64,000 bases of DNA from a phage (GCA_026066175.1 GCA_026066175.1_4721.1); one strand, 5' to 3'. Shown: positions 1,825 to 47,403, counted from the stretch's first letter. Translations and numbers: made by a program. Notes: a model not told the origin generated them from the letters alone.

Positions 1825-4800
1825 TTAAATTGTCGGTTTCACGTCGCGTAATAGGGCAATATAATAGCCTAATCCTCGGAGGATCTCCCCACTCCAGAAA
1901 CCAAAATACATTCCGTCTCTGCCGAGATTAGCACTATCTGGTGCAGGACTCCACCCACCATTCATTGCGTCATCAACGGTGTAATGATTGATGTAGTTTT
2001 CAGCGATCTCGTTATAAACGTTAACAGCAACAGGATAGCCTTTATCGTTGGGATGTCCGTACAACATCGCTAACGACGCACCCGCTAGCCATAATCCTGC
2101 CATGTGACCAGTAAAGTCATTCGGGATAAACGCAGGCGGTTTCTCCATTGGAAAATCCGTTGGTGATTGATAAGCATTTTCCTGCTGGAACGTATATAAG
2201 AAATCGATCCAATGACTGATGTAATGGGTTAACTTCTCAGGGACAGTTAATTTACGATCGATCAATCCCGCGTAAAGCCGTACCGCTGAAAAGAAAGCCC
2301 GCGGCTGATAACCAGACCATGCTGTTTGATCGCCGAAGTGGTACATCGTAAAATCATTGACCTTTGATCCGCTTGGCGCATCCCAACGATCCCACACGTA
2401 CGCACTCGCACCCGGCCCTAAAACACCGAACTTCTGATAGTACCATTGCTGTGAGTCATACCAGAAATCCACAACATTCTGAATCATGAGGTCACGACGT
2501 TCAGCCGAAACGTCCATATCCAGGAAGACCCACGGATGCTGGTAACCCGGATAAGGCTGACCGCGCCAGCTGTCGAAAGTCGGTGCGTTAGGGATATAGT
2601 TGTTAGAAAACGGAATAATACCTGGGGTATAAGGTAGTGGATCAAGACGTTGGTTAACGATCGTGCAGTCACCAACACGTAATGTTCCCTCCGCTTCAAA
2701 GGTTGCTTTTAATGTAAACAACATGGTATATCCGTCATCCGTGGCGTAAGTTGATGGCGGATTGTTGATAGCGTAGAGCTTAAATACCCCTTCAGCGATA
2801 TCGCTATCATCTGGCAAGAACAGAATTTCAGTTGAGCCATCACCCCACACAGGTGCAGAAGGTTTAGGGTCAGTATCAGCATGGTTCGGTTGATACCCTG
2901 AGAGCGTCCATCCAGTAGCCGAAAGCGTCAATGTATTTCTTGCTGTGGTGGCCGGTAGCATCTGCCACCATCGCCAACCATTTGCATCTTCTACACGAAC
3001 GTTGTAGTCAATCGACGCGAAATAACTGACCTGCCTTACGATCTGTTTTGCCGTTGGATTGAATTCAAATTGCCCGCCTGCCGCAGTAAGCTGCGCTTTT
3101 AAGAACAGTCCGTCACAGGAATCTTCAACAGCGTCGCTGAACTCCGTGGTGATTGCCACGTCATCCTTCCAACCGACTTTATCCGCCGATATCAATACAG
3201 AACCTGTAACAGCATCACCGGTTGGCGTTGAAGCTTCATCAACCGCATCAGCAGGAATCAACGCGCCTATTTTGAAATCCCATTCTTTCGGTTCAACGCT
3301 GGAAGGTAATACCAGCTTGTACGTTTTGGCTTTCGCTTCGGTTTTGTCCAAAGAAAGCGATAGTGAGATCTCAACCGGAATTGCAACGCCCGCTACATCT
3401 TTACCTCCGCAGGTTACACGAAGAATTGAATCGCGATTGACGCGGAACGGAATGGCCTGCTGTTCAAGGTAAATCTGTGCCGAAGATGCTTGAATCACGA
3501 TCCAACCGTCAACATCACGTGTGATCGTGAACGGTGCTTTCGATGGATAGGTATACGTGTAAGCGATACCGTCGGTGTCGTAACGATCGGTTCCTTTTAC
3601 CTGGCGGAAGAACTTGTCATTCGCATCAATGCGGGTATATTCCTCAATCGTAAACAAAGATGCCTTATACGCTTTCTGATAGCGCTCCTGCTGCGTTAAA
3701 CGGTATAAGGTGTAGGCTGCTTCACAAAACCACTGTTCAGCGTCTGATGCGTTTCCCATGTAGTCTCTGGTGACCGGTACCTGGATTGGTCGGTTATGCT
3801 GACACTCATTCGTTTTAATGAGATATCCACCATATTCAACAGGTACACGGGGTGCCCATGCAACCAAATAAGAACCGGTAACGGATTTATCTTTGAGTAC
3901 GATAGTCCCTACCTCGTCATCCGCACACGCCTCAAGATCTTCACCGTCCGCTGTTACGTAACGTTTTGTTCGCAACGCCAATTTCTCAATGGGGAATACA
4001 GTACCTTTTGTATTCCAGTCAATCGTCCCATTTTCATTCGTCTTGAACACATCCGCATTTAGATTTTGCCATCCAAGCTTACCCTCATAGACCTGAACAA
4101 CAAGATCCATGTATTCCCCGAACGTTGGTGAACCGTGAGGGATCTTACCGATTCCGTTGGTAAACACAACCGCGGTATCATGGAAACCACCATGTGTTGG
4201 GTAATCGTCTTTCGCAAGCGGGTAATGAGCCAACACCGGCTGTTTCCCATTAACAATCCAGTTTGCTATCCAACGTGTTGGGGTATCCGGTGGTTCAAGT
4301 CCTGCATAGAACGCTTTTACGTACGCGTCGAACGATGATTCCGCTAACGTAAGAAAATGGGCTTTAAGCTGGGTATCGTCGGTCGTATGACTGAAAATGC
4401 TTGCACCCAGGATCAACAACGATTGTCCTTCCGTTGTCGCGTCGCCATCCGGTTGTGCTTCCTGACGCGTTGCTGCGATAAAGTGACGGTTATTCACCAA
4501 CACACCGCTTTCATTCAAGACGTAATGATCGGTTTCAGGATCGGTAAACGTTCCTGTATTTCGCGTTAAGAAGCGAGCGTGGCCGTAACCAACGAAATTC
4601 ACCGGAGACGCTGTGATCATCCATTTACCGATAAGTTGTGCGACGTCCTTATAACGTTCCGACGCCGCGATCTGTTTTACGTACCAGTCTTGTCGATTGA
4701 ACGTCCAAAGCAGGAAGTAATACGTCTTATTGATCTCCATTACCGGAAACGTGGGCGTCAACGGTTCCAACGTTAAATAGTTACTCCAGTCAATCTGACC

Positions 4801-16689: not shown

Positions 16690-17229
16690 TTAAGCTCCTT
16701 TATGTTTTGTTTTGATTGATGATGTTAACCAGGATGATCTTACCGTAAAGCCTTCGGATTCATAGAACGCTTGGGCTTCAGCGTTATCGGCACGAACATC
16801 CAAACCGATGGCGTGCCCACCGCAATGGTACGCGACGTTACGGGCTTCGTTCATCAAGGCATGACCAATTCCGCGTCCGCGATACTCTTGCTTTACGATA
16901 ATCGACGTCACGTCATGAATACCCATATGGCTCTCGGTGCTCACTTCCAGGAGTCCTACCGGTATTGAGGCAATAGCATCGATCATGACAATCAACATCG
17001 CGCCAGCTGGGAGACGGTCTTCCAATTCCAGGGAAGCGTACTCGTCTTTTAAACCAGGGATACGTTCTGGTAGGAAGGTATCTATCCAGGCTTCTGATTC
17101 CGCATCATCGAGAATGCGATACAGTTCACGAATCCGCTGTTTATGTGGATAGAGGTGTGGGTCAGCCGCCGTTGAAGCGATAATGCAATGAAACGGTCGT
17201 TCATTGATCACCAATGATTTAATACTCAC
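16690..17229 (-). CDS. GNAT-family N-acetyltransferase
   Basis: Acetyl-CoA-binding motif A: VKQEYRGRGIGHALMNEA. Confidence 0.6.
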   Translation of the reverse strand: MSIKSLVINERPFHCIIASTAADPHLYPHKQRIRELYRILDDAESEAWIDTFLPERIPGLKDEYASLELEDRLPAGAMLIVMIDAIASIPVGLLEVSTESHMGIHDVTSIIVKQEYRGRGIGHALMNEARNVAYHCGGHAIGLDVRADNAEAQAFYESEGFTVRSSWLTSSIKTKHKGA

Positions 17230-17735
17230 GCTAAGTTTTCCTCGTTTTCTAAGAGTCGATTACGATGACGTTTATACATTTGATGTAACGCTGTGATCTG
17301 ATAAAATTTCTTATAGCGTCTTTCAATCCGCTTCTGCACCTCTTTCCATGGGAGTTTATCGTATTGACGATAACGATGGATTTCATTTAACATGCGGAGT
17401 CGATCAGGGTCTGTGTTCTGTATCGTCCTGAGTTTGATACGCTGGTAACCGCGTTGTAACCCCGATTCAGAATACGTCACACCGAATTCATCTTGAATTA
17501 AGGTGATGATCTCCCGCCAACGTCGTTTCTCACCGTCGCGCAAATGCACGACCCGCGATAAAATATCGTTACGATTACGATGACTCAGCTTGATATTAAG
17601 CATTGAAGCGATCGCGCTTATCCCTCTCTGACTCCGTCCTAACGCTTCACCGATCTCCTTTGATGTCATGACGCCAGCGTTTCGGCGTATGAATGCGATT
17701 TCGGTTGTTGTATATTCACGGTTACCCACGATCAT
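17226..17735 (-). CDS. HTH/Myb-like DNA-binding protein, paralog 1 of 6
   Basis: YTTTEIAFIRRNAGVMTSKEIGEALGRSQRGI plus C-terminal W..I..I..EFG..Y shared with the five neighbours. Confidence 0.5.
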   Translation of the reverse strand: MIVGNREYTTTEIAFIRRNAGVMTSKEIGEALGRSQRGISAIASMLNIKLSHRNRNDILSRVVHLRDGEKRRWREIITLIQDEFGVTYSESGLQRGYQRIKLRTIQNTDPDRLRMLNEIHRYRQYDKLPWKEVQKRIERRYKKFYQITALHQMYKRHRNRLLENEENLA

Positions 17736-18190
17736 ATCACCTGATAATAATGAAGACGTTGACGTAACGTAATCGGTTTATATTGCTTTCCAAATTCCTT
17801 GTTAATAATAGAAACCGTTTCCTTCCACGTGGGTCCTTGTTCACGTAGTGTTTTCGCCCGCGTTAGCAGCCGCGTGCGTTCTGTGGTGTCATAGCGACGC
17901 AGTCCTAAACGTCTTGCTGTTGCCGCTACGCTGTCACGCGAACGGTTGAGTTGTAGAGCGATCTCTTTAAACGACAACGTTCTTATGTTTTCACTGATAA
18001 AAGCGATCTCATCTTTGGTGTACGGTTTGTTCGTACGAACGGAGGGGAATAACGCAAGTTTATTCTTTATAGCGCTTCTTGAACGATTTAGCTGTTTAGC
18101 GATTATCGCGGTTGATGGACGTGGTATCTGTTCAGCAAGACGCTCCAGGCGCTCAAACTCTTCTTTCGTCCAACGGCGCTTCTGTCCCAT
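17732..18190 (-). CDS. HTH/Myb-like DNA-binding protein, paralog 2 of 6
   Basis: WTKEEFERL...IAKQLNRSRSAI; YTKDEIAFI...KEIALQLNRSRDSV; WKETVSIINKEFGKQY. Confidence 0.5.
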   Translation of the reverse strand: MGQKRRWTKEEFERLERLAEQIPRPSTAIIAKQLNRSRSAIKNKLALFPSVRTNKPYTKDEIAFISENIRTLSFKEIALQLNRSRDSVAATARRLGLRRYDTTERTRLLTRAKTLREQGPTWKETVSIINKEFGKQYKPITLRQRLHYYQVI

Positions 18191-18662
18191 TGGCTACACT
18201 CTCCTTCTTCTTGTTAAGAAACCATCGTTGATAAACAGCATGCTTACTGTAATGTGTACCGAACACCGTGTTCACATGGTCCGCGATCACGCTCCAACGA
18301 TAGCCCTGACGGTGTTGTTCGTCAATGTAGTCCAACAATGTCTGACGGAACGTCTCTGATGTTCGATAGATTTTATTCCGCATAGCAAACAATCGAACGG
18401 TGTCGTACGGTCGATTAAGATCAATAGCGATTTCCTTTAACGTTTTGTGTTTGACGTTATCCCTTAAGTAGTTCAGCTCTCGAGTTGTAAACGGTATGCG
18501 TGTTTGTCGTCGCTGTAACGTCAATCGTCGGATACGGCTTTCGACACTATAGCGAGAGCGTTTTAAACGTTCCGCAATCTCTCTTATTGGCGTTGTGGTT
18601 TCTGTATACAGAAAAACTAACAACGTTATTTCATCGGGTTTCCAGGGCCTAATTTCCTTCAT
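18153..18662 (-). CDS. HTH/Myb-like DNA-binding protein, paralog 3 of 6
   Basis: WKPDEITLL...EIAERLKRSRYSV; FTTRELNYL...KEIAIDLNRPYDTV; WSVIADHVNTVFGTHY. Confidence 0.5.
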   Translation of the reverse strand: MKEIRPWKPDEITLLVFLYTETTTPIREIAERLKRSRYSVESRIRRLTLQRRQTRIPFTTRELNYLRDNVKHKTLKEIAIDLNRPYDTVRLFAMRNKIYRTSETFRQTLLDYIDEQHRQGYRWSVIADHVNTVFGTHYSKHAVYQRWFLNKKKESVANGTEAPLDERRV

Positions 18663-19107
18663 TGATTACTTCCCCTTCTTCCTTATTTCTCTTCTCGTGA
18701 TACCACCAACGCTGACGAACCGCTTGTTCACTCCAATCAGAGTTGAAATGTTCGTTCGCTGTGTTGGTAATTTGGTGCCAACTGTCGCCTTCTTTTAACC
18801 TTTTGTTCACAAAAGCTAAGAATGCATGCGTGTATTCTCCACAAGAGCGTCGTATGCCATGTCGGTACGCAATAGCTCTTAAACTGTTTGGATCGCGACC
18901 TAAATCTCTCGCAATCGCTTTATACGTTTTTCGAGCAATGTTTGCTCTGATATACGCTATTTCATGTGATTTGAAATATTGATACGCGCGCCGTCTTGGA
19001 ACACCCAGTCGATGTAGTCGTGCTTGAACGGCCCCGTACGTCGTCTCCATGATTTCCGCGATTTCATGAATCTTTAATCGCGGTTGCCGAAAATACAGTT
19101 TCAACAA
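18649..19107 (-). CDS. HTH/Myb-like DNA-binding protein, paralog 4 of 6
   Basis: IHEIAEIMETTYGAV; FKSHEIAYIRANIARKTYKAIARDLGRDPNSL; WHQITNTANEHF. Confidence 0.45.
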   Translation of the reverse strand: MLKLYFRQPRLKIHEIAEIMETTYGAVQARLHRLGVPRRRAYQYFKSHEIAYIRANIARKTYKAIARDLGRDPNSLRAIAYRHGIRRSCGEYTHAFLAFVNKRLKEGDSWHQITNTANEHFNSDWSEQAVRQRWWYHEKRNKEEGEVINEGN

Positions 19108-19151
19108 CTGCTTATCGGACTTATGATTCCATCGTCATATCGTTGGTCTCA

Positions 19152-19634
19152 TTAATAAATAACCCTGTTCCTACGCGTCTTTAAAACATGTGTGTAATAG
19201 AGGCTATGTACGCCGCTTAAGGTGTAATGTGTGCCAAACTCCTGATTGATGATGTTCTTTATCTTCTCCCATGTTAGTGCGTCCTTTCGAAGATCCTCTA
19301 CGCGATGATAAATCATTTCTCGACGGGATGCTTTGCAGGCTACAATACCGTAACGGTAACATAGTTTGTGGATTGAGTTCACGCTACGATTAAACGCCCG
19401 TGCGGCTTCGGCTAGGCTATGTGTTTTCACGTATTGTGCGATACGTGCCCGTTCGTCGAAGCTGCTGGTATGATGGCGTTGCTTTAGTTTCCACCGTTTT
19501 CGATTACGATTGAGGCGTCCTTGGACCGAACCTTCCGTCCGACCCAAGCGCGACGCAATTTCCAACATCGGGACGCCATCTTGATACAGCGTGATCAACA
19601 CAGCATCCTCTTCAGGTGTCCAGTCCTTGACCAT
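19152..19634 (-). CDS. HTH/Myb-like DNA-binding protein, paralog 5 of 6
   Basis: WTPEEDAVLITLYQDGVPMLEIASRLGRTEGSVQGRLNRNRKRW is a clear Myb/SANT-like repeat; WEKIKNIINQEFGTHY. Confidence 0.55.
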   Translation of the reverse strand: MVKDWTPEEDAVLITLYQDGVPMLEIASRLGRTEGSVQGRLNRNRKRWKLKQRHHTSSFDERARIAQYVKTHSLAEAARAFNRSVNSIHKLCYRYGIVACKASRREMIYHRVEDLRKDALTWEKIKNIINQEFGTHYTLSGVHSLYYTHVLKTRRNRVIY

Positions 19635-19644
19635 CGTACCTACC

Positions 19645-20103
19645 TCATCTTGCGTGATAACTTAAAAGACGCCCAAGCGAGGCGGGCGTATAGCGTGCTT
19701 TGAATTCTTTGTTGATTTGCTTGGTGAGGTCCTTCCACGCGAGCTTATCTCGAAGTTGATTAACCCGATTGCAAACCGCTAATCGTTTTAGTTTGTTAAT
19801 CATGATACCGTTACGATGACAATAACAACGTACCGAATGAACGCTCCGTCCGAGTTCTTCTGCGATCTCCGCTAACGTATGCGTTTCAGCAAGCTGGACT
19901 AGACGTCGTTTCTCCTCTTGACTGTAACTTGGCATTCGTGTAGGCAAAGAACGTTCTTTACGTCGCAAACGTAAGTAACGCGCTCGTACACTCTTCGGTG
20001 AACGGTTCATGCTTTGCGCGACTTCTGCATAACTCGCATTGGGGAGTGTTTTAAGAATCCGCAGCAACGTTGCATCTTCTGCTGGTGTCCAATGTCTACC
20101 CAT
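19645..20103 (-). CDS. HTH/Myb-like DNA-binding protein, paralog 6 of 6
   Basis: WTPAEDATLLRIL...EVAQSMNRSPKSVRARYLRL; LAEIAEELGRSVHSV; WKDLTKQINKEF. Confidence 0.55.
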   Translation of the reverse strand: MGRHWTPAEDATLLRILKTLPNASYAEVAQSMNRSPKSVRARYLRLRRKERSLPTRMPSYSQEEKRRLVQLAETHTLAEIAEELGRSVHSVRCYCHRNGIMINKLKRLAVCNRVNQLRDKLAWKDLTKQINKEFKARYTPASLGRLLSYHAR

Positions 20104-20107
20104 GTTC

Positions 20108-23230
<3,123 letters not shown>

Positions 23231-31539: not shown

Positions 31540-32559
31540 TTATACCGCTACTTGTGCTTTAATAGCAGGGTGTGATTGATATCCGACGAACACAAAGTCT
31601 TCGTAACGGTAATCCGTGATACTCTCCGGTTTCCGCACAATTTTCAGTTTCGGTAGTGGATACGGCTCACGACTAAGTTGTTCTTTAACCTGTTCGAAGT
31701 GGTTATGGTAGATGTGACAATCTCCACCTGTCCACACAAACTCCCCAACGTCCATGTTCAGCTGTTGCGCAAGCATGTGTGTTAACAACGAATAGGAAGC
31801 AATGTTAAAGGGCGTCCCGAGCAGCGCGTCCTGGCTACGACAAGTCAGCATACACGACAGTGCGCGCGTAGGTACGTTATGCGCATTCAACCAGAGTTCG
31901 GTTTCGCTCTGTTTAACATCGTCGGTAACCCATCGTGCTCTTAGCGCATCGTTGCGGTGGACGTAATAAACACGTTCATCGATAGTGAGTTCATGGGTGT
32001 AGAACTGATAGAAACTGTGGCATGCAGGAAGCGCCATATCGTCTAAATTGCCTACGTTCCATGCGCTAACGATAATCCGTCGAGAATCAGGATCTTCTTT
32101 GAGTTGACGCATCACGTTTGCAATTTGGTCATGGTGTTTAACATACAAGAGATGTTTAACCATACCGTCGTTAACAATACCGCAATACTCATAACCGCGT
32201 TGCATCAAAGTACGGGTACGTTCGGTGTCGTGCGGAACAACAACTTTGTAGTCGATCCATTCACGCCATTGTCTACCGTAAATCGGCCCTAGGTTCCCTT
32301 CTTTATCAGCCCACTCATTCCAAATACGTACGCCGTTATCCTGAAGATACGCGACGTTCGTATCACCGTTAAGGAACCAGAGTAGTTCGTGAACAACGCT
32401 CTTAAGGTGAATCTTCTTGGTGGTGACCAACGGAAACCCTTTCTTTAAGTCAAAATGCATTTGACGTCCGAATACCGAACGTGTGCCGGTACCGGTACGA
32501 TCAGCTTTATCGCGACCGCTATCCATGATGTCTTGTAAGAGATCTAAGTACTGTTTCAT
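31540..32559 (-). CDS. thyA: Thymidylate synthase (ThyA family) with two insertions
   Basis: Collinear with E. coli ThyA from MKQYL..DRTGTGT..FPLVTTK..HELLWFL to [14 protein letters not shown], the catalytic Cys in [21 protein letters not shown] and C-terminal REP.PLPKL; ~40-aa and ~30-aa insertions give 339 aa versus 264. Confidence 0.85.
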
Positions 32560-32828: not shown

Positions 32829-33692
32829 TTAGTAATAATATCTGATACGTTCGGGTTTTGCTAAAACACTCTGTTCGAATGGCCTTACATGTACGCAAAC
32901 ATCGACAGAATAATAGATACTACCATCGCCACACCATCGCATTACCACACATCCCTTTCTTGTACGAATATGGTAAAACGTCCACTGTGTTTGCCAGTTA
33001 TCGTCTGTGGATTCTTCCGTTCTTTCTTCCGCATCAAGAATCTTTTCACCGACAATATCGCTTAAATCACCATCGATATCGCTGAGATATACCGTCTCGC
33101 AACACTCACGGCTGTGGTACATTTCTACCACGTTATCGTCTTCGCGATGAAAAAGGATAGCTTTACAGTATTCCAGCTGTTCCTCGGTTATTTCTGACGC
33201 GTTAAGTAATTCGTCGTTATCAGTCACCATCCAGATATTTTTGATTACATGCCCGTCGAGCTCCTCCATTGTAAATACCTCGATATTCGGACGAACGGGT
33301 TCAGGTTGAACAATCGGAATACGAACACAACCAATTAAGGCCATCCGTCCTTTCTTTGGTCTAACCGCAAGGTAAGGTGATTTTCTTGGGTGGTTATGCA
33401 GACGTATTTCTAATTCGTCGAATTTAATCCCGTATATACCTAAGAAACGATCGAACAACCGATGAAACTCATCTGTTGCTTCTTCCAACGTTATGGCGTC
33501 TACCGTGAGTTTATGTCCCCTGAACACTCTGGTTAAATCGATAACGTCCAGTGTCTTGAAATATATTTCCGTAAGGGGATGATTTGTATTTTCCAGGTAC
33601 GTAATGGTTCTTTGAACCCAGATTTTAGGCGCAGCGCCTTTAAAACGTTTCAGGTATTTAAAGCGATAACGGGTATGATCTGATGTTATCAT
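32829..33692 (-). CDS. Hypothetical protein
   Basis: Start moved to MITSDHTRY (GAGAGGAGG upstream); the longer ORF would read through the terminator hairpin. Confidence 0.45.
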   Translation of the reverse strand: MITSDHTRYRFKYLKRFKGAAPKIWVQRTITYLENTNHPLTEIYFKTLDVIDLTRVFRGHKLTVDAITLEEATDEFHRLFDRFLGIYGIKFDELEIRLHNHPRKSPYLAVRPKKGRMALIGCVRIPIVQPEPVRPNIEVFTMEELDGHVIKNIWMVTDNDELLNASEITEEQLEYCKAILFHREDDNVVEMYHSRECCETVYLSDIDGDLSDIVGEKILDAEERTEESTDDNWQTQWTFYHIRTRKGCVVMRWCGDGSIYYSVDVCVHVRPFEQSVLAKPERIRYYY

Positions 33693-33766
33693 TTTAGCCT
33701 CCTCTCTTAGCTTCAGAGAATTCTCAAAATCCGTTAGTTTTGATAGACCGAGTAAGACGGCATAAA

Positions 33767-33787
33767 AGCCTCCCTCCATGGGAGGCT
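33767..33787 (-). terminator. GC-rich stem-loop with TTTTATGCC tail
   Basis: AGCCTCCC / GGGAGGCT; minus-strand tail TTTTATGCCG. Confidence 0.5.
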
Positions 33788-33800
33788 TTATTACGATAAT

Positions 33801-34349
33801 TTACATTACGCGGACAGCGAATTCAAGGACGTATACGTCATCGGCGTCCATTGGGTTTGTGGTCGAATAACCAATGAAACAATACCCCATCGCTGAAACG
33901 AAATCTTCGAGTTTATCAATGCTATTTGCGAGAATGCGATCATCGATGCTCAAACGGCATTTACGCGTTATTTTGTTACCGCGCGGTACGGCGGATAACA
34001 AACACATGAAATGCGTGATGCGGTTGTTATGGATAAACTGCGAATAGACATCAGAAGGATTGAGACTCCCCATAACGTCCTGAATGTGTGCACGACGTCC
34101 AGGTGATACATATTCCGAGTATGCGAATGTCGCTACCGTACGACGATCTTCAGTGAAATACGTATTACCTTCAGGGTGGTAGCTCTCCACGGTTCCATCT
34201 TCGCGGGCGACGGTTACGATAGGTGCACCGTATTCGTCACGGCTGAAATCAACTTTGCATTTATCCGTGAGTGGTAGTATCGTGCACGGCTTCGCGGTGT
34301 TCTCATCCGGGAGATCATAACCACTCATCATTTTCAAGAACATAGACAT
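33801..34349 (-). CDS. Hypothetical protein, paralog A of a local three-gene family
   Basis: N-terminus MSMFLKMMSGYDLPDENTAKP..TVATFAYS resembles 34436-34975; C-terminal KITRKCRLSIDDRI resembles 35051-35362. Confidence 0.45.
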   Translation of the reverse strand: MSMFLKMMSGYDLPDENTAKPCTILPLTDKCKVDFSRDEYGAPIVTVAREDGTVESYHPEGNTYFTEDRRTVATFAYSEYVSPGRRAHIQDVMGSLNPSDVYSQFIHNNRITHFMCLLSAVPRGNKITRKCRLSIDDRILANSIDKLEDFVSAMGYCFIGYSTTNPMDADDVYVLEFAVRVM

Positions 34350-34401
34350 AATAGAACCTCATGGTAATAGAAGATAGAGTTAATAGATACTACAACAGAT
34401 T

Positions 34402-34425
34402 GAGGGGGTATTATCCCACCCCCTC
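34402..34425 (-). terminator. Stem-loop
   Basis: GAGGGGGT / ACCCCCTC. Confidence 0.4.
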
Positions 34426-34435
34426 GCAGGGATTA

Positions 34436-34975
34436 TTACTTCTTATAAGGCGTGACTCTAAAGACACCCTCATTCTGATCATAAACAACCACGAACTGTC
34501 CGGCGAATAGATGACGGAGTAATGAGTCGATATTGTTTATAAATTGACTGTCATTTATCTGTACAAAATCGATTACGCGATCTCGCTTCAAACTACGATC
34601 GATTAAGCGTATTTCAAGCAACGCCATGATAAGTTTATCGTTAAGATATCCGCCTGCCTCCAAGGCTTTTCCATAACTGACGTTTTTGATATCAGCACGC
34701 ATACGCTCGACGTCTACCATGGGGAAACCGCAAGAATACGCATATGTTGCGACAGTGTTACCGTTATCCATCACGTAGACGTTACCGCCGGGATAATCGA
34801 TAAAACGTTGGGTTTTGTCACCATGAACAGCGATTTCTAACGTCGGTTTACCCATCGAATTGCGGTTGAATTCGATGGTCGTCAAGCGATCCGGCACCAC
34901 ATGCAGTGTAAACGGTTTCGAGTTGTTTTGATCGCTGGTATCGCAGTTGCCCATCATTTTTACAATAACACTCAT
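34436..34975 (-). CDS. Hypothetical protein, paralog B
   Basis: MSVIVKMMGNCDTSDQNNSKP..TVATYAYS. Confidence 0.45.
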   Translation of the reverse strand: MSVIVKMMGNCDTSDQNNSKPFTLHVVPDRLTTIEFNRNSMGKPTLEIAVHGDKTQRFIDYPGGNVYVMDNGNTVATYAYSCGFPMVDVERMRADIKNVSYGKALEAGGYLNDKLIMALLEIRLIDRSLKRDRVIDFVQINDSQFINNIDSLLRHLFAGQFVVVYDQNEGVFRVTPYKK

Positions 34976-35050
34976 GTTTAACTCCTTAGTAGTCCTAGTA
35001 GTAGTTAATGAGGGAGTTCACCTCATCAGATAACCTATACTGGTAAGATC

Positions 35051-35362
35051 TTACCGAAACGTTACGTGAAATGAAACAATGTAACCTTCTGGTTTGTCAG
35101 CCTTATATCGAGTACAGAAATAACCAAACTTCGTTAGGAATTCACACAACGCATCGGCCTGATATAACGGTATACGGTCGTCATCGAGTAACGAGCATTG
35201 ATGTGTAATCTTCTCCGAAGGATCGACACGACACAAATAAAGAAGGAATCCTACTATAGCCTGATTACTCGTAAAGTTGTCGAACTCGTCTTTGGCTTTA
35301 AACTCTTTAATGGACGTTAGCGTTTTCGTCAATCGCTCACGATCAAGCATGTTAACCTCCAT
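35051..35362 (-). CDS. Hypothetical protein, paralog C (C-terminal domain only)
   Basis: KITHQCSLLDDDRI...GYFCTRY resembles the C-terminus of 33801-34349. Confidence 0.4.
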   Translation of the reverse strand: MEVNMLDRERLTKTLTSIKEFKAKDEFDNFTSNQAIVGFLLYLCRVDPSEKITHQCSLLDDDRIPLYQADALCEFLTKFGYFCTRYKADKPEGYIVSFHVTFR

Positions 35363-35780: not shown

Positions 35781-37094
35781 TCACTTAGACACCGCCATGC
35801 TTCGCGCTAACGCAACGTCGTACGCATCCATGATTGCGTCGCCGATAGCAGTATGACGAATCAACGGAATACCTACGTCTGGATACTCTTTGGTACCCAT
35901 GATCGATACCGGTTTGTCCTGATAGGCTGCGATCATCGAACGAATGTCCTGAACCTGGTTGTATCGGCAGATGGGTTTAAAGCCTGCTTTACGGAACCAA
36001 TACTCTAATTGAGGCCAATCGGTTTCACCGCGGGCAAGATAATAGAAGGTATCTTTACCGTAGTATTCTGTCATTTTGTCACGAATATTGTTAACGAACG
36101 CATTGACTTCAGCAATGGCTTCTTTATAGCCCATTACCTTACCATGCTGGAAACAATAATCACGTGCTTCTTTCGGTGCTTTGGTTTGCCACCACTCTAC
36201 CGTTGATTCGCTGATACGACCACCGTCAGCGATTTGACCGTGCACGTCAGGGAAGACATCAATACGCGGACCGTTAACGATGGATTCTGGATTAGCCAGA
36301 TCGAAGAACACGATACCGATTTCTAACAACACCCCGTTCTTTTCCAGACTAAGGTTCTCAACATCCAAACAGAATGCAGGCTTCTCTACCGCTAATGGCT
36401 CGAATGAATGGTTGCTGGTATCCGACTCAGCTTCGAGTTCGGTGGCGTCCAGATCGGTATCCGCAGGTTTCAGTTCTAATACAGCATTATCAAGCCCGGT
36501 TAACGAAAAATAGTCTTCGAAGAAATCGGGTACCGTCATGCCATGCAAATCGATACCACAATCTTCCATCCATTGTTTAAACTGGCACTCATCGACATCG
36601 ATCGCTAAACGGCATGGTCCGTAACGATTATCCAATGACGCATCAATCCAGAAGAAAGTGCGTATAAGTAAGTAAGGATTATGCTCCGCGATGATTTCTT
36701 GGCTAGCGTGAGCATCATACACCATTACCTGTATTATTTCCTTACGTGTGTTATACGGATCAACCATCAATCGCCGCACGACTTCTCCCAGGTATTCCAG
36801 CGCACGTGTGTACACGGTAGATCCAACTTGTCCGTACGCGCTTATACCCGTCAATAGTTCCTTATAAGACGCGTCTGAAAGCGAAGACGATAGCACACGC
36901 GCCAGCTCGGCATTGTATATACTGCATGATTTCTTCGGGGCGATAGCATCATGTAACGCTTTAATAAACGCTGGTCCATCAATATCAAACAACCATCCTT
37001 GGCGTCGGTGGGCGGTATATCGTAATAACGCACCGATAGCTGCCTGGGGTGGTGTATATTCTTTTTCGTTAATTTCAAACAGTAGTTCGCTCAT
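35781..37094 (-). CDS. Two-domain protein with C-terminal DnaQ-like 3'-5' exonuclease (DEDDh)
   Basis: Exo I FCLDVENLS (D.E), Exo III RHTAIGDAIMDAYD (H...D); ~200-aa N-terminal domain of unknown function. Confidence 0.55.
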   Translation of the reverse strand: MSELLFEINEKEYTPPQAAIGALLRYTAHRRQGWLFDIDGPAFIKALHDAIAPKKSCSIYNAELARVLSSSLSDASYKELLTGISAYGQVGSTVYTRALEYLGEVVRRLMVDPYNTRKEIIQVMVYDAHASQEIIAEHNPYLLIRTFFWIDASLDNRYGPCRLAIDVDECQFKQWMEDCGIDLHGMTVPDFFEDYFSLTGLDNAVLELKPADTDLDATELEAESDTSNHSFEPLAVEKPAFCLDVENLSLEKNGVLLEIGIVFFDLANPESIVNGPRIDVFPDVHGQIADGGRISESTVEWWQTKAPKEARDYCFQHGKVMGYKEAIAEVNAFVNNIRDKMTEYYGKDTFYYLARGETDWPQLEYWFRKAGFKPICRYNQVQDIRSMIAAYQDKPVSIMGTKEYPDVGIPLIRHTAIGDAIMDAYDVALARSMAVSK

Positions 37095-37110
37095 TTTAAC
37101 ACCTTTTTTG

Positions 37111-37446
37111 TTATTCTGGTTTATCTGCTGACAGACCGAGACCCGCCAGTATTACGTAGTCGTACCACGCTTTTACTTTTGCTTTCGCGTCATCTAAACT
37201 GAATTCGGTGACGTAAGGAAATTCGCCGTTGACTTGGAAAGGCAGCTCGCAGGTGTAGCCGGTATGATCCTTCCAACCTTTCCATTCGATAATCAGAAGA
37301 CCAAAAACAGTCTCAGCGGTAACATGATTGTAGCGGCACGCTTCGTTTGGCGGATATTCTTCCGACCAGGTAATCTCCTGCTGTGCTAAAAGCTGTTGTA
37401 CGACCGCTAACGGTTGTTCCTCATTAAGTTCGATACTATCGATCAT
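37111..37446 (-). CDS. Hypothetical protein
   Basis: 111-aa ORF. Confidence 0.4.
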   Translation of the reverse strand: MIDSIELNEEQPLAVVQQLLAQQEITWSEEYPPNEACRYNHVTAETVFGLLIIEWKGWKDHTGYTCELPFQVNGEFPYVTEFSLDDAKAKVKAWYDYVILAGLGLSADKPE

Positions 37447-43566: not shown

Positions 43567-43613
43567 CGTACGTACCTCTTTGACTGTATTAATAAATCGT
43601 GTTTACTCACGTA

Positions 43614-43645
43614 AGTAATATAGCCGTGAAAGGATTTGTATTGGC
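43614..43645 (-). promoter_or_regulatory. Promoter-like motif, copy 2
   Basis: GCCAATACAAATCCTTTCACGGCTATATTACT on the minus strand, ~48 nt upstream of start 43566. Confidence 0.45.
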
Positions 43646-43709
43646 ACGTTCGACGTTCATCGTATTTTATGGATTGTCGAATGACGTCATTTTAAGGGAC
43701 ATCCCCGGC

Positions 43710-43745
43710 CTCCTCCCCAGGAAAGGTGTGGGGAGGAGTTTTTAC
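43710..43745 (+). terminator. Plus-oriented terminator-like hairpin with T5 tail, ~30 nt before the SNF2 helicase start
   Basis: CTCCTCCCC / GGGGAGGAG followed by TTTTTAC. Confidence 0.5.
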
Positions 43746-43772
43746 CAGACTTTTATTAATTCGAGTGCGAGT

Positions 43773-45854
43773 ATGTTAGATAGAATAAATCGCCTAATGA
43801 ACCGGATAACGGTTAAAAATCAAAGCAACAATACCGTGCATGTTGGGGGTATCGATGCCTGGCGTCTTTCGGACGATATCCAGCGAATCTGGGGTACCTC
43901 TCGGTTTATGAAATATATGTTTCGTAACTTCTCTTCCAGCGGTCTTAGCATTCACAACTTCTATCTGCCTGATTTCGTTTATATTCTTGAAACGATCATT
44001 GATGCAAAGAACACCCGCAGCAACAAGCGGATGCTAAAACGCCTTGTTGAAGTCTTGTTAGAAGAAACCTGGCTGCAAAATACCACCATCGAACAGCCAG
44101 CCATTCTTGATAAAGCGCGCATGAAGAAAATGATGACGCTTTCTTTGTTCGATTATCAAGATGAGTATCTCGACATTTATAACCGCAACGTTCCGAAATA
44201 TCGATTAAAAGGCCATGTGTGTGCGATGGGTGCCGGGGCGGGTAAAACAATTACCGCGTTGGCGTTAAGCGCTGCCTTGGGTGTTGACGTCTTCGTGGCA
44301 TGCTGTCCTAAGAACACCATGCGTTCGGCATGGCAATCAGATTTACATAAAGCGCTTGTGGATCCTGCAACCGAATCCGCATTCTGGTCTGATGTGATGC
44401 CCCCAACCCAGTTACAGAAAAGCGATAAATATTACTTCCTGCATTACGAGCAGATGGGATTGTTAAACGAGATCATGCTCAAGCATAAACGCACAGCAAA
44501 ACGTGTGTTGATCGTTGTCGATGAAAGCCATAACTTCAACGATAAGAACAGTCAACGTTCTCAGCGTTTGGTTGATCTGGTACAGACGATGCGTCAAACC
44601 ATGAATGCGGACATACATGTCTTATTTATGTCGGGTACGCCTGTTAAACAGATGGGTTCTGAAATGATCCCATGTTTAGGTTGCATTGACCCGATGTTCC
44701 AAGGCCAGGTGGTTGATAGCTTCAAGTCGATTTACGGTTTAACCAGCAGTCGTGCTAATGATATCTTAAGGCATCGTCTTGGATTCATGATGCATGTCGT
44801 ACCCAAAGAAGCTTACCGTAAGACACGGCCTGAGGTTCAGGACGTATACGTGAAACTGCCTAACGGTAGTGATTACACCATCTCAAGTATCCGTGACGAT
44901 ATGGCGGTGTTTGTGCGTGACCGTGCAAAATACTACAAAGATAACTGGGGGCATTACCGGAAGATTTTCGATGATGCGCTGGATTTCTATCGTCGGACCA
45001 TACGGACGGAAGGTGAGCGTAAAGAACTGTCTCGTTATGAATCCATCGTCGCCCGCTTTCAGAAAGGTTACGATCCTGTCAGGGATAAAGAAGACGCCAT
45101 GTTCTGCAACGTGTTCGAGAAACGAGCGATCATGCCGATTCTTCCTCCCGATTTACGGATTGCGTTCAAAGACGCCAAAAGCGTCATCAAGTACGTCGGA
45201 TTGAAGATTCAAGGGGAAGCCTTGGCAAGGGTTCTTGGCGCAGCGCGCATTCAATGCCACGTTGATATGGTCGAGTATATCGATTTTGAAGGGTATATCA
45301 ACAATGCTGAAGCCAAAGTGCTGATCTTCACGTCATACGTTCAGGTAGTTGAACGCGTTGATAACCTGCTTCGCGATGCGGGCTTCTTACCAGAACCGAT
45401 CTACGGGAAGACCAACAAGAACATTAACCAGATCCTCGCGCGATTACGCGATGATCCTGACAGCGGTCCCGCTATCGCAACCTTTGATAGTTTAGCGGAA
45501 GGGGTTCCTATGTTAATGTGTAACGTCGGCCTTTTCTTAAATAACCCCTGGCGTTCCTCCGATGAGATCCAAGCCATCAGTCGTCTCGACCGTGTTGGTC
45601 AAACCCAACCTGTTCGTATCTATCGTTTCATGCTGGATACTGGCAGCGAAGGTAACGTTTCAACACGAAGCCAAGAGATCATGGAGTTAAGTCGTCAGCT
45701 GGTTGAAGAAATCACAGGTGTTAAATACAATGTGAATAAACAAGCCGACGTTAACCTACAAGAAACGCTGGCTATGGAAGGGTACGATAGATACTTGACG
45801 ATTAATACCCCTGGGTTTGAAATCAAACCGCGTTCCACGTTCTTAGAATGGTAA
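43773..45854 (+). CDS. SNF2-family (SF2) helicase/ATPase
   Basis: Motif I CAMGAGAGKT, motif II VVDESHNF, motif III MSGTPVKQ; start placed at ATG 43773 (MLDRINRL) because the track ORF begins with GTG at 43599 and would translate through a terminator-like hairpin. Confidence 0.7.
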   Translation: MLDRINRLMNRITVKNQSNNTVHVGGIDAWRLSDDIQRIWGTSRFMKYMFRNFSSSGLSIHNFYLPDFVYILETIIDAKNTRSNKRMLKRLVEVLLEETWLQNTTIEQPAILDKARMKKMMTLSLFDYQDEYLDIYNRNVPKYRLKGHVCAMGAGAGKTITALALSAALGVDVFVACCPKNTMRSAWQSDLHKALVDPATESAFWSDVMPPTQLQKSDKYYFLHYEQMGLLNEIMLKHKRTAKRVLIVVDESHNFNDKNSQRSQRLVDLVQTMRQTMNADIHVLFMSGTPVKQMGSEMIPCLGCIDPMFQGQVVDSFKSIYGLTSSRANDILRHRLGFMMHVVPKEAYRKTRPEVQDVYVKLPNGSDYTISSIRDDMAVFVRDRAKYYKDNWGHYRKIFDDALDFYRRTIRTEGERKELSRYESIVARFQKGYDPVRDKEDAMFCNVFEKRAIMPILPPDLRIAFKDAKSVIKYVGLKIQGEALARVLGAARIQCHVDMVEYIDFEGYINNAEAKVLIFTSYVQVVERVDNLLRDAGFLPEPIYGKTNKNINQILARLRDDPDSGPAIATFDSLAEGVPMLMCNVGLFLNNPWRSSDEIQAISRLDRVGQTQPVRIYRFMLDTGSEGNVSTRSQEIMELSRQLVEEITGVKYNVNKQADVNLQETLAMEGYDRYLTINTPGFEIKPRSTFLEW

Positions 45855-45948: not shown

Positions 45949-47403
45949 ATGAAAATCAAACAAAGCTGGAAAGACGAATTACTTGCATTAGTTAACAGCA
46001 AAAACAGTTTACAACTGACATTAGACGACGTAAAGTTTGAATTAACCGAACCGGTAAGCGAAGTGCCCGGAACGGTCGTTGTTACAATCAAACCGAACGA
46101 TAATAGTCGCTACTTTAACGAGCAGTCTCTGACCTACGTCCGTCGAGACATTGCTAAAAACTTCACCGGGATTCCGTTACGGGTTATCGTTAAGCAAGAT
46201 ACCGCTGTAAGGGATATCATCAATACGATTGCTGAACGTTACGGATTGGTATTTGACACAACCGTCGACTTCCTCGAATCAGAGCTGAATAAACAAATTA
46301 CTTTCGCAGACACCGGTATTAAAGACGTTACTGTTCCGGTTGCAAACACGTCTTATGTTTGGGCTGGTAATCTTCAGTTCAATATTGCGAACGATACGTT
46401 AAGCTTGATTACTATCATCAAGAAAACCAATCTTACGAATCTGGTTTATCTGGATGGTGTTGAAGCTGACACATCGGGGTCGTTACTGTTAGCCACCACA
46501 GCACTTGTTAACGATAGCGTAAATAAGCCGATGGTTGAAAACGAAGATATCGTCGATGAATTCTACAACGTTCTTAATGCTCTAGCCAAATATGGTGACA
46601 TAACTGGCGATGAATTAAATGCCGCCTTACATGCGTACGATGAAGCAGAAAACAGGAATAAAACCACGGTAATAACTCTTGGTGATATCCAGTGTGTTGC
46701 AACAGAAAAAGACGATTGGGAAATTGGACGTTTACGCGGTCAGATGGTTCTCGCGCTCAAATCCGACAAACAACCTGAGCGCGAGAACACGTTAAGGTTG
46801 TTTACGAATGGCGGTGACGTCTCACTAACGTTAAACACAATGAAAGATATCAGTATCGATTGGGGTGATGGGAATAAAGTAACGTTGGATGCTGAAGAAA
46901 GATACGCGCACCACACATACGCCGACAATAACCAGTACCAAATCGAAATTGTGTCTCGTACGGACCCAGATGTGCTGCGACCAAATTATATTTCTGGGAG
47001 TGAGATAACCGAAGTAATTCACTGGGCTACTACTTCAACAATAGCTCTGAATTTTGTTGGATGCGATAATTTAGCGACTGTTCCAGATGAGATCCCAACT
47101 TCGTGGACAACGTTGGACAGCATGTTTGAAAGTTGTACGAATTTGAATGATCCGTCTATCTCTAACTGGAATACAAGTAACATCACATCAATGAATGGTA
47201 TGTTCGGCGGATGCACTAAATTTAACCAACCTTTAGCTGCCTGGGATGTCAGCTCAGTAACTGACATTGGTGGTATGTTTGTCGGATGTGACAGTTTTAA
47301 CCAAGATTTAAGTGGGTGGCGATTACCGTCAGGAGTAAACCACACCAATTACGATGATGGTGCTTTCTCGTGGCAGACGGAACATAAACCGACATTCCAG
47401 TAA
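45949..47403 (+). CDS. Fibre / receptor-binding-like protein with C-terminal DUF285-type repeats (paralog of 32-1786)
   Basis: N-terminal ~150 aa aligns closely with 32-1786; C-terminal ITSMNGMFGGCTKFNQPLAAWDVSSVTDIGGMFVGCDSFNQDLSGW repeats. Confidence 0.6.
   Translation: MKIKQSWKDELLALVNSKNSLQLTLDDVKFELTEPVSEVPGTVVVTIKPNDNSRYFNEQSLTYVRRDIAKNFTGIPLRVIVKQDTAVRDIINTIAERYGLVFDTTVDFLESELNKQITFADTGIKDVTVPVANTSYVWAGNLQFNIANDTLSLITIIKKTNLTNLVYLDGVEADTSGSLLLATTALVNDSVNKPMVENEDIVDEFYNVLNALAKYGDITGDELNAALHAYDEAENRNKTTVITLGDIQCVATEKDDWEIGRLRGQMVLALKSDKQPERENTLRLFTNGGDVSLTLNTMKDISIDWGDGNKVTLDAEERYAHHTYADNNQYQIEIVSRTDPDVLRPNYISGSEITEVIHWATTSTIALNFVGCDNLATVPDEIPTSWTTLDSMFESCTNLNDPSISNWNTSNITSMNGMFGGCTKFNQPLAAWDVSSVTDIGGMFVGCDSFNQDLSGWRLPSGVNHTNYDDGAFSWQTEHKPTFQ

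Follow-up and report, generated by a model that had tools for sequence, protein, structure and literature searches.

DexA-type exonucleases are common phage enzymes that usually consist of a single domain of ~200-250 aa, and the question raised by the locus described here is what one of them does with an extra N-terminal region of ~235 residues. The gene occupied positions 35781..37094 on the minus strand of the window, which is the whole stretch of phage DNA analysed (64,000 nucleotides), and it encoded a protein of 437 aa followed by the stop codon. The reading frame started with an ATG, the ribosome-binding site AAGGTG (37100..37105, minus strand) was located 5 nt before this codon, and the upstream gene ended, stop codon included, at 37111. 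Because the frame was intact in over 20 protein clusters whose contigs measured ~240 kb, and both of its halves were under purifying selection, it was considered to be far beyond chance. The window belonged to a Goslar-like jumbo phage (Chimalliviridae), with the nucleus-forming Escherichia phage Goslar as its best phage match. The encoded protein was 52.7% identical to Goslar gp147 across 98% of its length, the neighbouring proteins were 59-96% identical to their Goslar counterparts, and the gene order agreed over gp141-gp159, so that gp147 was the positional ortholog. Goslar gp147 (YP_009820832.1) is named '3'-5' exoribonuclease' in RefSeq and hypothetical in GenBank, and literature searches for the protein or its accession numbers found no functional study. 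A search of 5.8 billion protein clusters returned 24 clusters with this protein, nearly all from contigs of ~235-250 kb, some of which were labelled E. coli, Salmonella enterica or Shigella by NCBI. Two such loci were present in IMG/VR, and megablast against the INPHARED phages and complete E. coli genomes gave no match. Among the chimalliviruses, tblastn found the exonuclease gene only in Goslar and the RAY-like Erwinia phages, which placed it outside the Chimalliviridae core. An annotation of the gene exists in Goslar, and its nuclease family is well known. The new findings are that the N-terminal domain can be delimited as an orphan and that it behaves as a module which is exchangeable and deeply polymorphic.

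The C-terminal half, which the preliminary description had recognized as a DnaQ-like DEDDh exonuclease, was confirmed as such by a family match and by five invariant catalytic residues. Residues 236-437 (35784..36389, minus strand) constituted the predicted DexA/Rv2179c-type DEDDh 3'-5' exonuclease domain. Within it, residues 242-424 (35823-36371) matched PF16473 (Rv2179c-like) with 60.2 bits (E 2.8e-16), above the gathering threshold of 27 by which Pfam defines membership, and covered profile positions 4-170 of 177; they also matched phrog_255 'exonuclease' (E 2.5e-26). T4 DexA (79.6 bits), gp064 of Erwinia phage RAY (51.6 bits) and the metagenomic protein P0024 likewise passed PF16473. The Exo I motif FCLDVENLS and the Exo III motif RHTAIGDAIMDAYD that had been quoted beforehand were real and stood at residues 241-249 (36348..36374, minus strand) and 413-426 (35817..35858, minus strand), respectively. 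The first contained D244 (36363-36365) and E246 (36357-36359), and the second contained H414 (35853-35855) and D419 (35838-35840), whose Hx4D spacing assigned the domain to the DEDDh subtype. The Exo II motif GETDWPQLE (36003..36029, minus strand) provided D359 (36018-36020). These five residues, which formed a complete DEDDh set, were invariant in an alignment with relatives of 22-48% identity that took in P0024, RAY gp064, Salmonella phage SA002 and Xanthomonas phage X1. The C-terminal module is therefore predicted to be a metal-dependent 3'-5' exonuclease of the DEDDh type with an intact catalytic site, belonging to the T4 DexA / Rv2179c family.

When the profile of the C-terminal family (A5) was compared with solved structures, T4 DexA was the sole match (8KEL/8KEN, E 1.6e-21, chain residues 4-211 of 227), and none of the Rv2179c PDB chains was found at E 0.01. 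The pairwise similarity between the window protein and the single-domain, 227-aa DexA was weak (phmmer E 0.11); nevertheless, both belong to PF16473, their profile alignment was full-length, and their DEDDh residues corresponded. In the DexA structures 8KEL/8KEN, the catalytic motif is labelled as D7, E12, D119, H186 and D191 in the figure legend (PMC12153337). The catalytic residues of the window protein aligned with the catalytic-motif residues of DexA, with the glutamate aligned in the profile match being E9 of FIIDFET. Residue W152 of DexA has been implicated in the recognition of 5hmC (PMC12153337). The DexA-type exonucleases that recognise 5hmC (HREX) are characterized by this conserved tryptophan and by a quaternary switch between dimer and tetramer (PMC12153337). 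In the HMM alignment, the corresponding position of the window protein was N379 (CRYNQVQ), which implied that the 5hmC speciality of DexA is not shared by the window protein. M. tuberculosis Rv2179c, the founder of PF16473 and a member of the same Pfam family as the window protein, is a single-domain bacterial exoribonuclease. Since DexA acts on DNA and Rv2179c on RNA, although both exonucleases are members of PF16473, the substrate of the window enzyme is not legible from sequence alone.

In the rest of the family, the nuclease module stood by itself. No N-terminal domain was found in the five comparators, namely T4 DexA (227 aa), RAY gp064 (250 aa), the SA002 protein (220 aa), the Xanthomonas X1 protein (211 aa) and P0024 (244 aa), and the fusion partner of ~200 aa was accordingly not a routine part of the exonuclease family, in agreement with the preliminary description. 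The statement that the N-terminal half lacked any recognisable motif was also borne out, as residues 1-235 had no match in Pfam, PHROGs, NCBIfam or PADLOC. An AlphaFold2 model of the N-terminal domain, residues 1-200 (36495..37094, minus strand), was built from a 13-sequence alignment and reached a pLDDT of 82.7 and a pTM of 0.83. The predicted fold was all-alpha, with a beta-hairpin at residues 6-13, eight helices within residues 15-155, and a small beta-alpha-beta-alpha unit at residues 162-195. In the full-length model, the C-terminal half had a pLDDT below 50 because the alignment there was almost invariant, and this model was uninformative on contacts between the domains. Foldseek with the N-terminal domain gave nothing below E 0.6 against the PDB and returned only Goslar gp147 itself from BFVD. 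A profile HMM of the same region, searched against 1.84 billion representative proteins, found Goslar-group proteins only, apart from two repeat-protein artefacts. One of these, P0026, was an RHS-like repeat protein. The other, P0027, contained at least 10 copies of 'AKELQNAGIDLGDLTVxDIF', which is like residues 162-198, and showed the scattered partial Pfam matches typical of repeats; the resemblance was treated as a short-motif lead rather than homology. The N-terminal domain of the Goslar-like phages is a lineage-restricted orphan with no relative by sequence or fold in the searched sets.

More specific identities of this domain were also considered. An hmmsearch within the window linked it to an HTH protein (18153..18662) at E 0.003; however, hhalign against the paralog family of that protein, an array of HTH proteins in the window, scored 17.5, inside the shuffled range, with a probability of 0.8%, and the HTH identity was rejected. 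An SAP/HeH element at residues 165-196 was not supported either, since Pfam support was absent and the segment was acidic, and no consistent Pfam match to SAP, HhH or HTH was obtained for the domain even at E 10. The domain as a whole was acidic, with a pI mostly of 4.5-5.5 and up to 6.2, and such values speak against a general affinity for nucleic acids. In ERI-1 / 3'hExo, an N-terminal targeting domain (SAP) is followed by a linker and a C-terminal DEDDh exonuclease. The resemblance of this arrangement to that of the window protein is an analogy of architecture between non-homologs, because the N-terminal domain of the window protein has no match to SAP or any other Pfam family and is acidic instead of basic.

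Comparison with the Goslar clade revealed that the two modules of the protein have had different histories. Goslar gp147 shared the two-module architecture, and its C-terminal domain was 91% identical to that of the window protein (~91% over the C-terminal 202 residues for the clade), whereas the N-terminal 235 residues were ~21% identical and their DNA was at noise level. Along the DNA, the flanks and the nuclease domain were 76-94% identical between the window and the Goslar clade, and the identity fell abruptly to 33-43% between ~37110 and 36400. The exchangeable variable cassette thus delimited, from the start codon to ~codon 230 (36405..37110, minus strand), was 0-60% identical in DNA to the Goslar-type alleles, with flanks of 76-100%. 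The form found in the window, which comprises subtypes, is referred to as type A, and the Goslar form is referred to as type B. The two types were nonetheless homologous in the N-terminal region: hhalign gave a score of 34.4 over 179 collinear columns, compared with 14.1 +/- 2.4 (maximum 20.9) for 60 column-shuffled controls. Replacement of the N-terminal region by a non-homologous sequence was rejected on this ground, the score being ~8 SD above the controls.

The same pattern was found between genomes that were otherwise nearly identical. The loci L008 (type A) and L010 (type B) were 93-100% identical in the flanks, of which ~1.7-3 kb were available per side, and 0-60% identical from the start codon to ~codon 230. 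The window and locus L004 were 100% identical outside a patch ending at codon ~222, with a dS of 0.03 in the C-terminal part and 0.85 in the N-terminal part. The breakpoints coincided with the start codon and the junction between the domains. In the comparisons of type A with type B, the right-hand breakpoint recurred at a conserved peptide of this junction, SFEPLAVEKPAF (residues 230-241; 36372..36407, minus strand), where the nuclease domain starts. The linker between the two modules (residues 201-235; 36390..36494, minus strand) was acidic in its second half in type A (DTDLDATELEAESDTSNH), and 22 of its residues were absent from the Goslar type. A diversity-generating retroelement was rejected as the source of the variation, since blastn of 36380-37100 against the whole window gave chance matches of at most 27 nt and no template repeat. 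The N-terminal DNA of type B was slightly AT-richer (GC 0.39-0.41 vs 0.45), a difference that is not decisive for a foreign origin. Both types were common, with ~206 member sequences of type A and ~386 of type B, and both occurred in contigs labelled E. coli and Salmonella, so that host-genus-specific alleles were also rejected. The N-terminal module is a recombining, deeply polymorphic cassette that is exchanged at the module borders. As the alleles moved as a unit between nearly identical genomes, the binding partner of a putative adaptor may itself be variable or contested.

A fast-evolving region of this kind might be a functionless appendage, left over from a gene fusion and free to drift and recombine. 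This explanation would account for the absence of detectable relatives, for a rate of evolution far above that of the nuclease, and for the linker, which was nearly neutral (dN/dS 0.7-0.9). The selection analysis nevertheless argued against it. By the Nei-Gojobori method, the nuclease had a dN/dS of 0.04-0.10 and the N-terminal part one of 0.25-0.50, and in sliding windows the ratio was 0.36-0.57 for residues 31-114 and only 0.15-0.27 for the domain core (residues 100-186). These values indicate that the N-terminal domain is constrained and functional, evolving faster than the nuclease, and they do not allow pervasive positive selection to be demonstrated. Moreover, the reading frame was intact in every full-length member, the fold prediction was confident, and the collinear homology of types A and B persisted despite saturated divergence. 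The N-terminal module was kept in all ~590 member sequences, including those in which the nuclease half had been deleted. In this lineage (L016, a 247-kb contig, with the protein on three contigs), a 304-bp deletion took away Exo II, Exo III and the stop codon and left the N-terminal domain in place, which implied that the nuclease activity is dispensable in nature. A functionless appendage is thus disfavoured by selection, fold prediction and domain retention, and we regard it as highly improbable.

The neighbourhood of the gene pointed to nucleotide metabolism. The neighbours included genes for an HD phosphohydrolase, a metallophosphoesterase and thymidylate synthase, the last of which (31540..32559, minus strand) was located ~3.2 kb downstream on the same strand. 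In five divergent phages (the window phage, Goslar, RAY, SA002 and locus L011), no more than a few genes separated the exonuclease gene from that for thymidylate synthase (thyA). In Erwinia phage RAY, gp064 was three genes away from thyA; like gp067 of phage AH06, it belongs to the same exonuclease family and is an accessory protein of a chimallivirus. DexA of T4 scavenges host DNA for nucleotides and also assists intron homing (PMC12153337), and host DNA is degraded by Goslar (PMC10541120). The reading that we prefer, with a probability of roughly 0.5, is that of a cytoplasmic DexA-type exonuclease for nucleotide salvage, flexibly tethered to a lineage-specific protein-interaction adaptor with a variable partner. 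Its substrate, cytoplasmic location, dimeric state and adaptor role are what we infer here. The nuclease module, by analogy with DexA, would probably act as a dimer. It would work in the host cytoplasm, outside the phage nucleus, and trim fragments of host-derived DNA, possibly also of RNA, to mononucleotides. The mononucleotides would then supply the products of the three neighbouring nucleotide-metabolism genes. The N-terminal module would not be a part of the catalytic cleft; as an adaptor for protein interaction, it would determine the localisation or the regulation of the nuclease, and the linker, partly acidic and nearly free of selective constraint, would allow flexibility between the two modules.

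The cytoplasmic location was suggested by the RAY homolog, an accessory gene product whose GFP fusion was distributed diffusely in the cytoplasm and not in the phage nucleus (PMC10299810). RAY gp064 is a stand-alone protein ~22% identical to the window protein, and the N-terminal domain that it lacks could change the localisation, so that the location of the window protein in the cytoplasm is proposed by analogy. The same observation could be taken in favour of an RNA-processing enzyme that trims RNA 3' ends like Rv2179c of M. tuberculosis, with mRNA fragments, tRNA or nanoRNA as possible targets and with the N-terminal domain as a tether to the cytoplasmic translation or RNA-decay machinery. 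The cytoplasm of cells infected by nucleus-forming phages holds RNA, the phage DNA being shut away (PMC12908238), and the Pfam family is named after an exoribonuclease. However, the only solved relative found by sequence was the DNA exonuclease DexA, the linkage to thymidylate synthase suggests DNA-precursor metabolism, and the RefSeq name of gp147 was transferred from Pfam and does not reflect a tested function. An RNA-processing role therefore appears unlikely. The salvage reading itself faces difficulties. RAY has a homolog of the enzyme and yet leaves the host DNA undegraded (PMC12908238), which weakens a simple form of this reading, and a variable adaptor would be odd for a housekeeping salvage enzyme and is better suited to a conflict role. 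If the domain is not a targeting or conflict interface, the protein would represent a well-defined orphan domain on an ordinary salvage nuclease.

Because the behaviour of the cassette suits a conflict interface better than a housekeeping function, two readings, counter-defence and competition between phages, were retained beside salvage. The exchange of the domain hints at a targeting or conflict module, and the earlier suggestion that the fusion partner may confer substrate targeting is compatible with the cassette polymorphism, which is not proof of it. In the first of these readings, the variable N-terminal domain would dock on a host immune component, or would be the part of the protein that is sensed by the host, and the exonuclease would destroy a defence-related nucleic acid whose 3' end is free; candidates are retron msDNA, DRT cDNA, linear signalling oligonucleotides and guide RNAs. 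Cyclic signalling nucleotides, which the preliminary description had mentioned as substrates, were unsupported, as a 3'-5' exonuclease requires a free 3' end. The allelic diversity would then be the result of an arms race with variable host defences. Consistent with such a role, deep allelic types were present at high frequency in near-identical genomes and were swapped exactly at the module borders, the gene was accessory and sat in a block of orphan genes, the nuclease was dispensable in at least one natural lineage, and the nearest stand-alone homolog, P0024, was encoded two genes from an AcrVA2-like gene. Bacteria, for their part, deploy DexA homologs as a defence, so that the family is already involved in phage-host conflict (PMC12153337). 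On the other hand, no PADLOC model matched the window protein, which was unlike any known anti-defence protein, the window-averaged dN/dS was below 1, and the allele type was independent of the host genus. Among its nine neighbours, PADLOC gave a single, marginal match (33801..34349; 36 residues, E 0.0024). Overall, a counter-defence nuclease seems possible but not probable.

In the second reading, the N-terminal cassette might decide whether the nuclease enters a phage nucleus, so that the enzyme could attack the DNA of a co-infecting relative, and the alleles would diversify alongside the selectivity of nuclear import. The alleles segregated among near-identical co-circulating phages, which is the pattern expected of a conflict within a species. 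Import into the chimallivirus nucleus is selective, and differences in import shut a harmful nuclease of one phage out of the nucleus of a relative (PMC12908238); furthermore, under the conditions of laboratory imaging, cells are commonly co-infected by Goslar (PMC10541120). A weapon of this type is suggested by analogy, and the RAY homolog, which has no such domain, is cytoplasmic, so we consider it very unlikely. A reading that covers both kinds of opponent would take the N-terminal cassette as a specificity module, with a balanced polymorphism maintained by conflict, whose role is to guide a conserved DexA-type nuclease. The target would be an immune component of the host that is itself variable, or else the nucleus of a co-infecting sister phage, which the nuclease would be led to enter or to avoid. 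This reading is tentative, with the odds clearly against it. If it were true, the allele type would set which hosts or competitors the phage overcomes, and nucleus-forming phages would possess a polymorphic weapon composed of a targeting domain and a nuclease, built like the nuclease bacteriocins.

In nuclease colicins and S-type pyocins, recombination at a conserved junction joins divergent N-terminal modules, which determine specificity, to a nuclease module that is conserved. The pattern of breakpoints is the same as that of the window cassette, and the likeness is an evolutionary analogy: colicins and pyocins are secreted bacteriocins with immunity proteins, whereas nothing in the window gene suggests secretion or an immunity partner. 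In the window phage, a DexA-type enzyme has gained a domain restricted to Goslar-like phages that behaves like a specificity determinant. Should this domain prove to mediate targeting or conflict, it would reveal how a cytoplasmic nuclease is used by a phage whose own DNA is hidden in a nucleus. The role of the domain is directly testable in Goslar, a tractable E. coli model of the nucleus-forming phages. In a published alignment of RAY gp064 with Goslar gp147 (Fig. S4L), the N-terminal extension is already visible, without being discussed there (PMC10299810).

The exonuclease gene was found with its nuclease half truncated by a natural deletion at a related locus, L016. There, on a 247-kb Goslar-like contig, 304 bp were missing at position 3935, corresponding to positions 3939-4242 of L010, a type B locus. 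The deletion removed the last ~97 codons of the gene, which encode Exo II and Exo III, together with the stop codon, and the open reading frame ran through the intergenic region into the next gene. The type B N-terminal domain was retained, and the protein product of the deletion allele (P0023) was found on 3 contigs.

The closest stand-alone homolog of the exonuclease, P0024 (244 aa), lacked the orphan domain, and its nuclease domain was 48% identical to that encoded in the window. In its neighbourhood (L011, 341-6075), the P0024 gene was located two genes upstream of a gene for an AcrVA2-like protein (PF26125). Downstream of P0024, a thymidylate synthase gene was interrupted by a GIY-YIG/I-TevI-like homing endonuclease, in the manner of the T4 td intron. 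Residues 1-13 of P0024 (MKEIITKIKTPKF) loosely resembled the N-terminal β-hairpin of the fused proteins (MSELLFEINEKEY). From this very short stretch, it is conceivable that the fused form arose when the helical domain entered the gene behind an ancestral N-terminal strand. A further short resemblance involved window residues 162-198 (KQWMEDCGIDLHGMTVPDFF), the best-conserved sub-motif within the N-terminal domain, which matched P0027 with an E value of 4.5e-6. P0027 is a metagenomic repeat protein of 1076 aa with at least 10 copies of “DENIAKELQNAGIDLGDLTVxDIFTK”, and the match probably reflects chance similarity of a short motif that the repeats have amplified.

The exonuclease gene was directly followed on its downstream side by a block of three small ORFs, paralogs of 182, 179, and 103 aa, at 33801..35362 (-); related loci differed in how many such ORFs they carried. 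The two longer ORFs shared the N-terminus MSxxxKMMxxxDxxDxNxxKP, and the small ORFs cross-matched Goslar gp143/gp144 with 33-70% identity. Next to the block, 32829..33779 (-) encoded a DUF7448 protein of 316 aa. Because its Goslar alignment covered only 24 residues, this gene is another replaced segment of the variable region.

Elsewhere in the window, the NAD-dependent DNA ligase (20802..22877, -), the SNF2/DEAD-type helicase homologous to Goslar gp160 (43599..45854, +), and the DUF7941+DUF285 protein (45949..47403, +) were ordinary content for a jumbo phage, which confirmed the context of the window. Seven small ORFs (152-179 aa) formed a tandem array at 16690..20103 (-); six were clearly paralogous, with 25-32% identity to the reference, and the seventh showed only 14%. 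Three of the array proteins were scanned against Pfam and contained helix-turn-helix motifs resembling Myb, sigma-70 region 4, or HTH_23, with two motifs in each as judged by eye.
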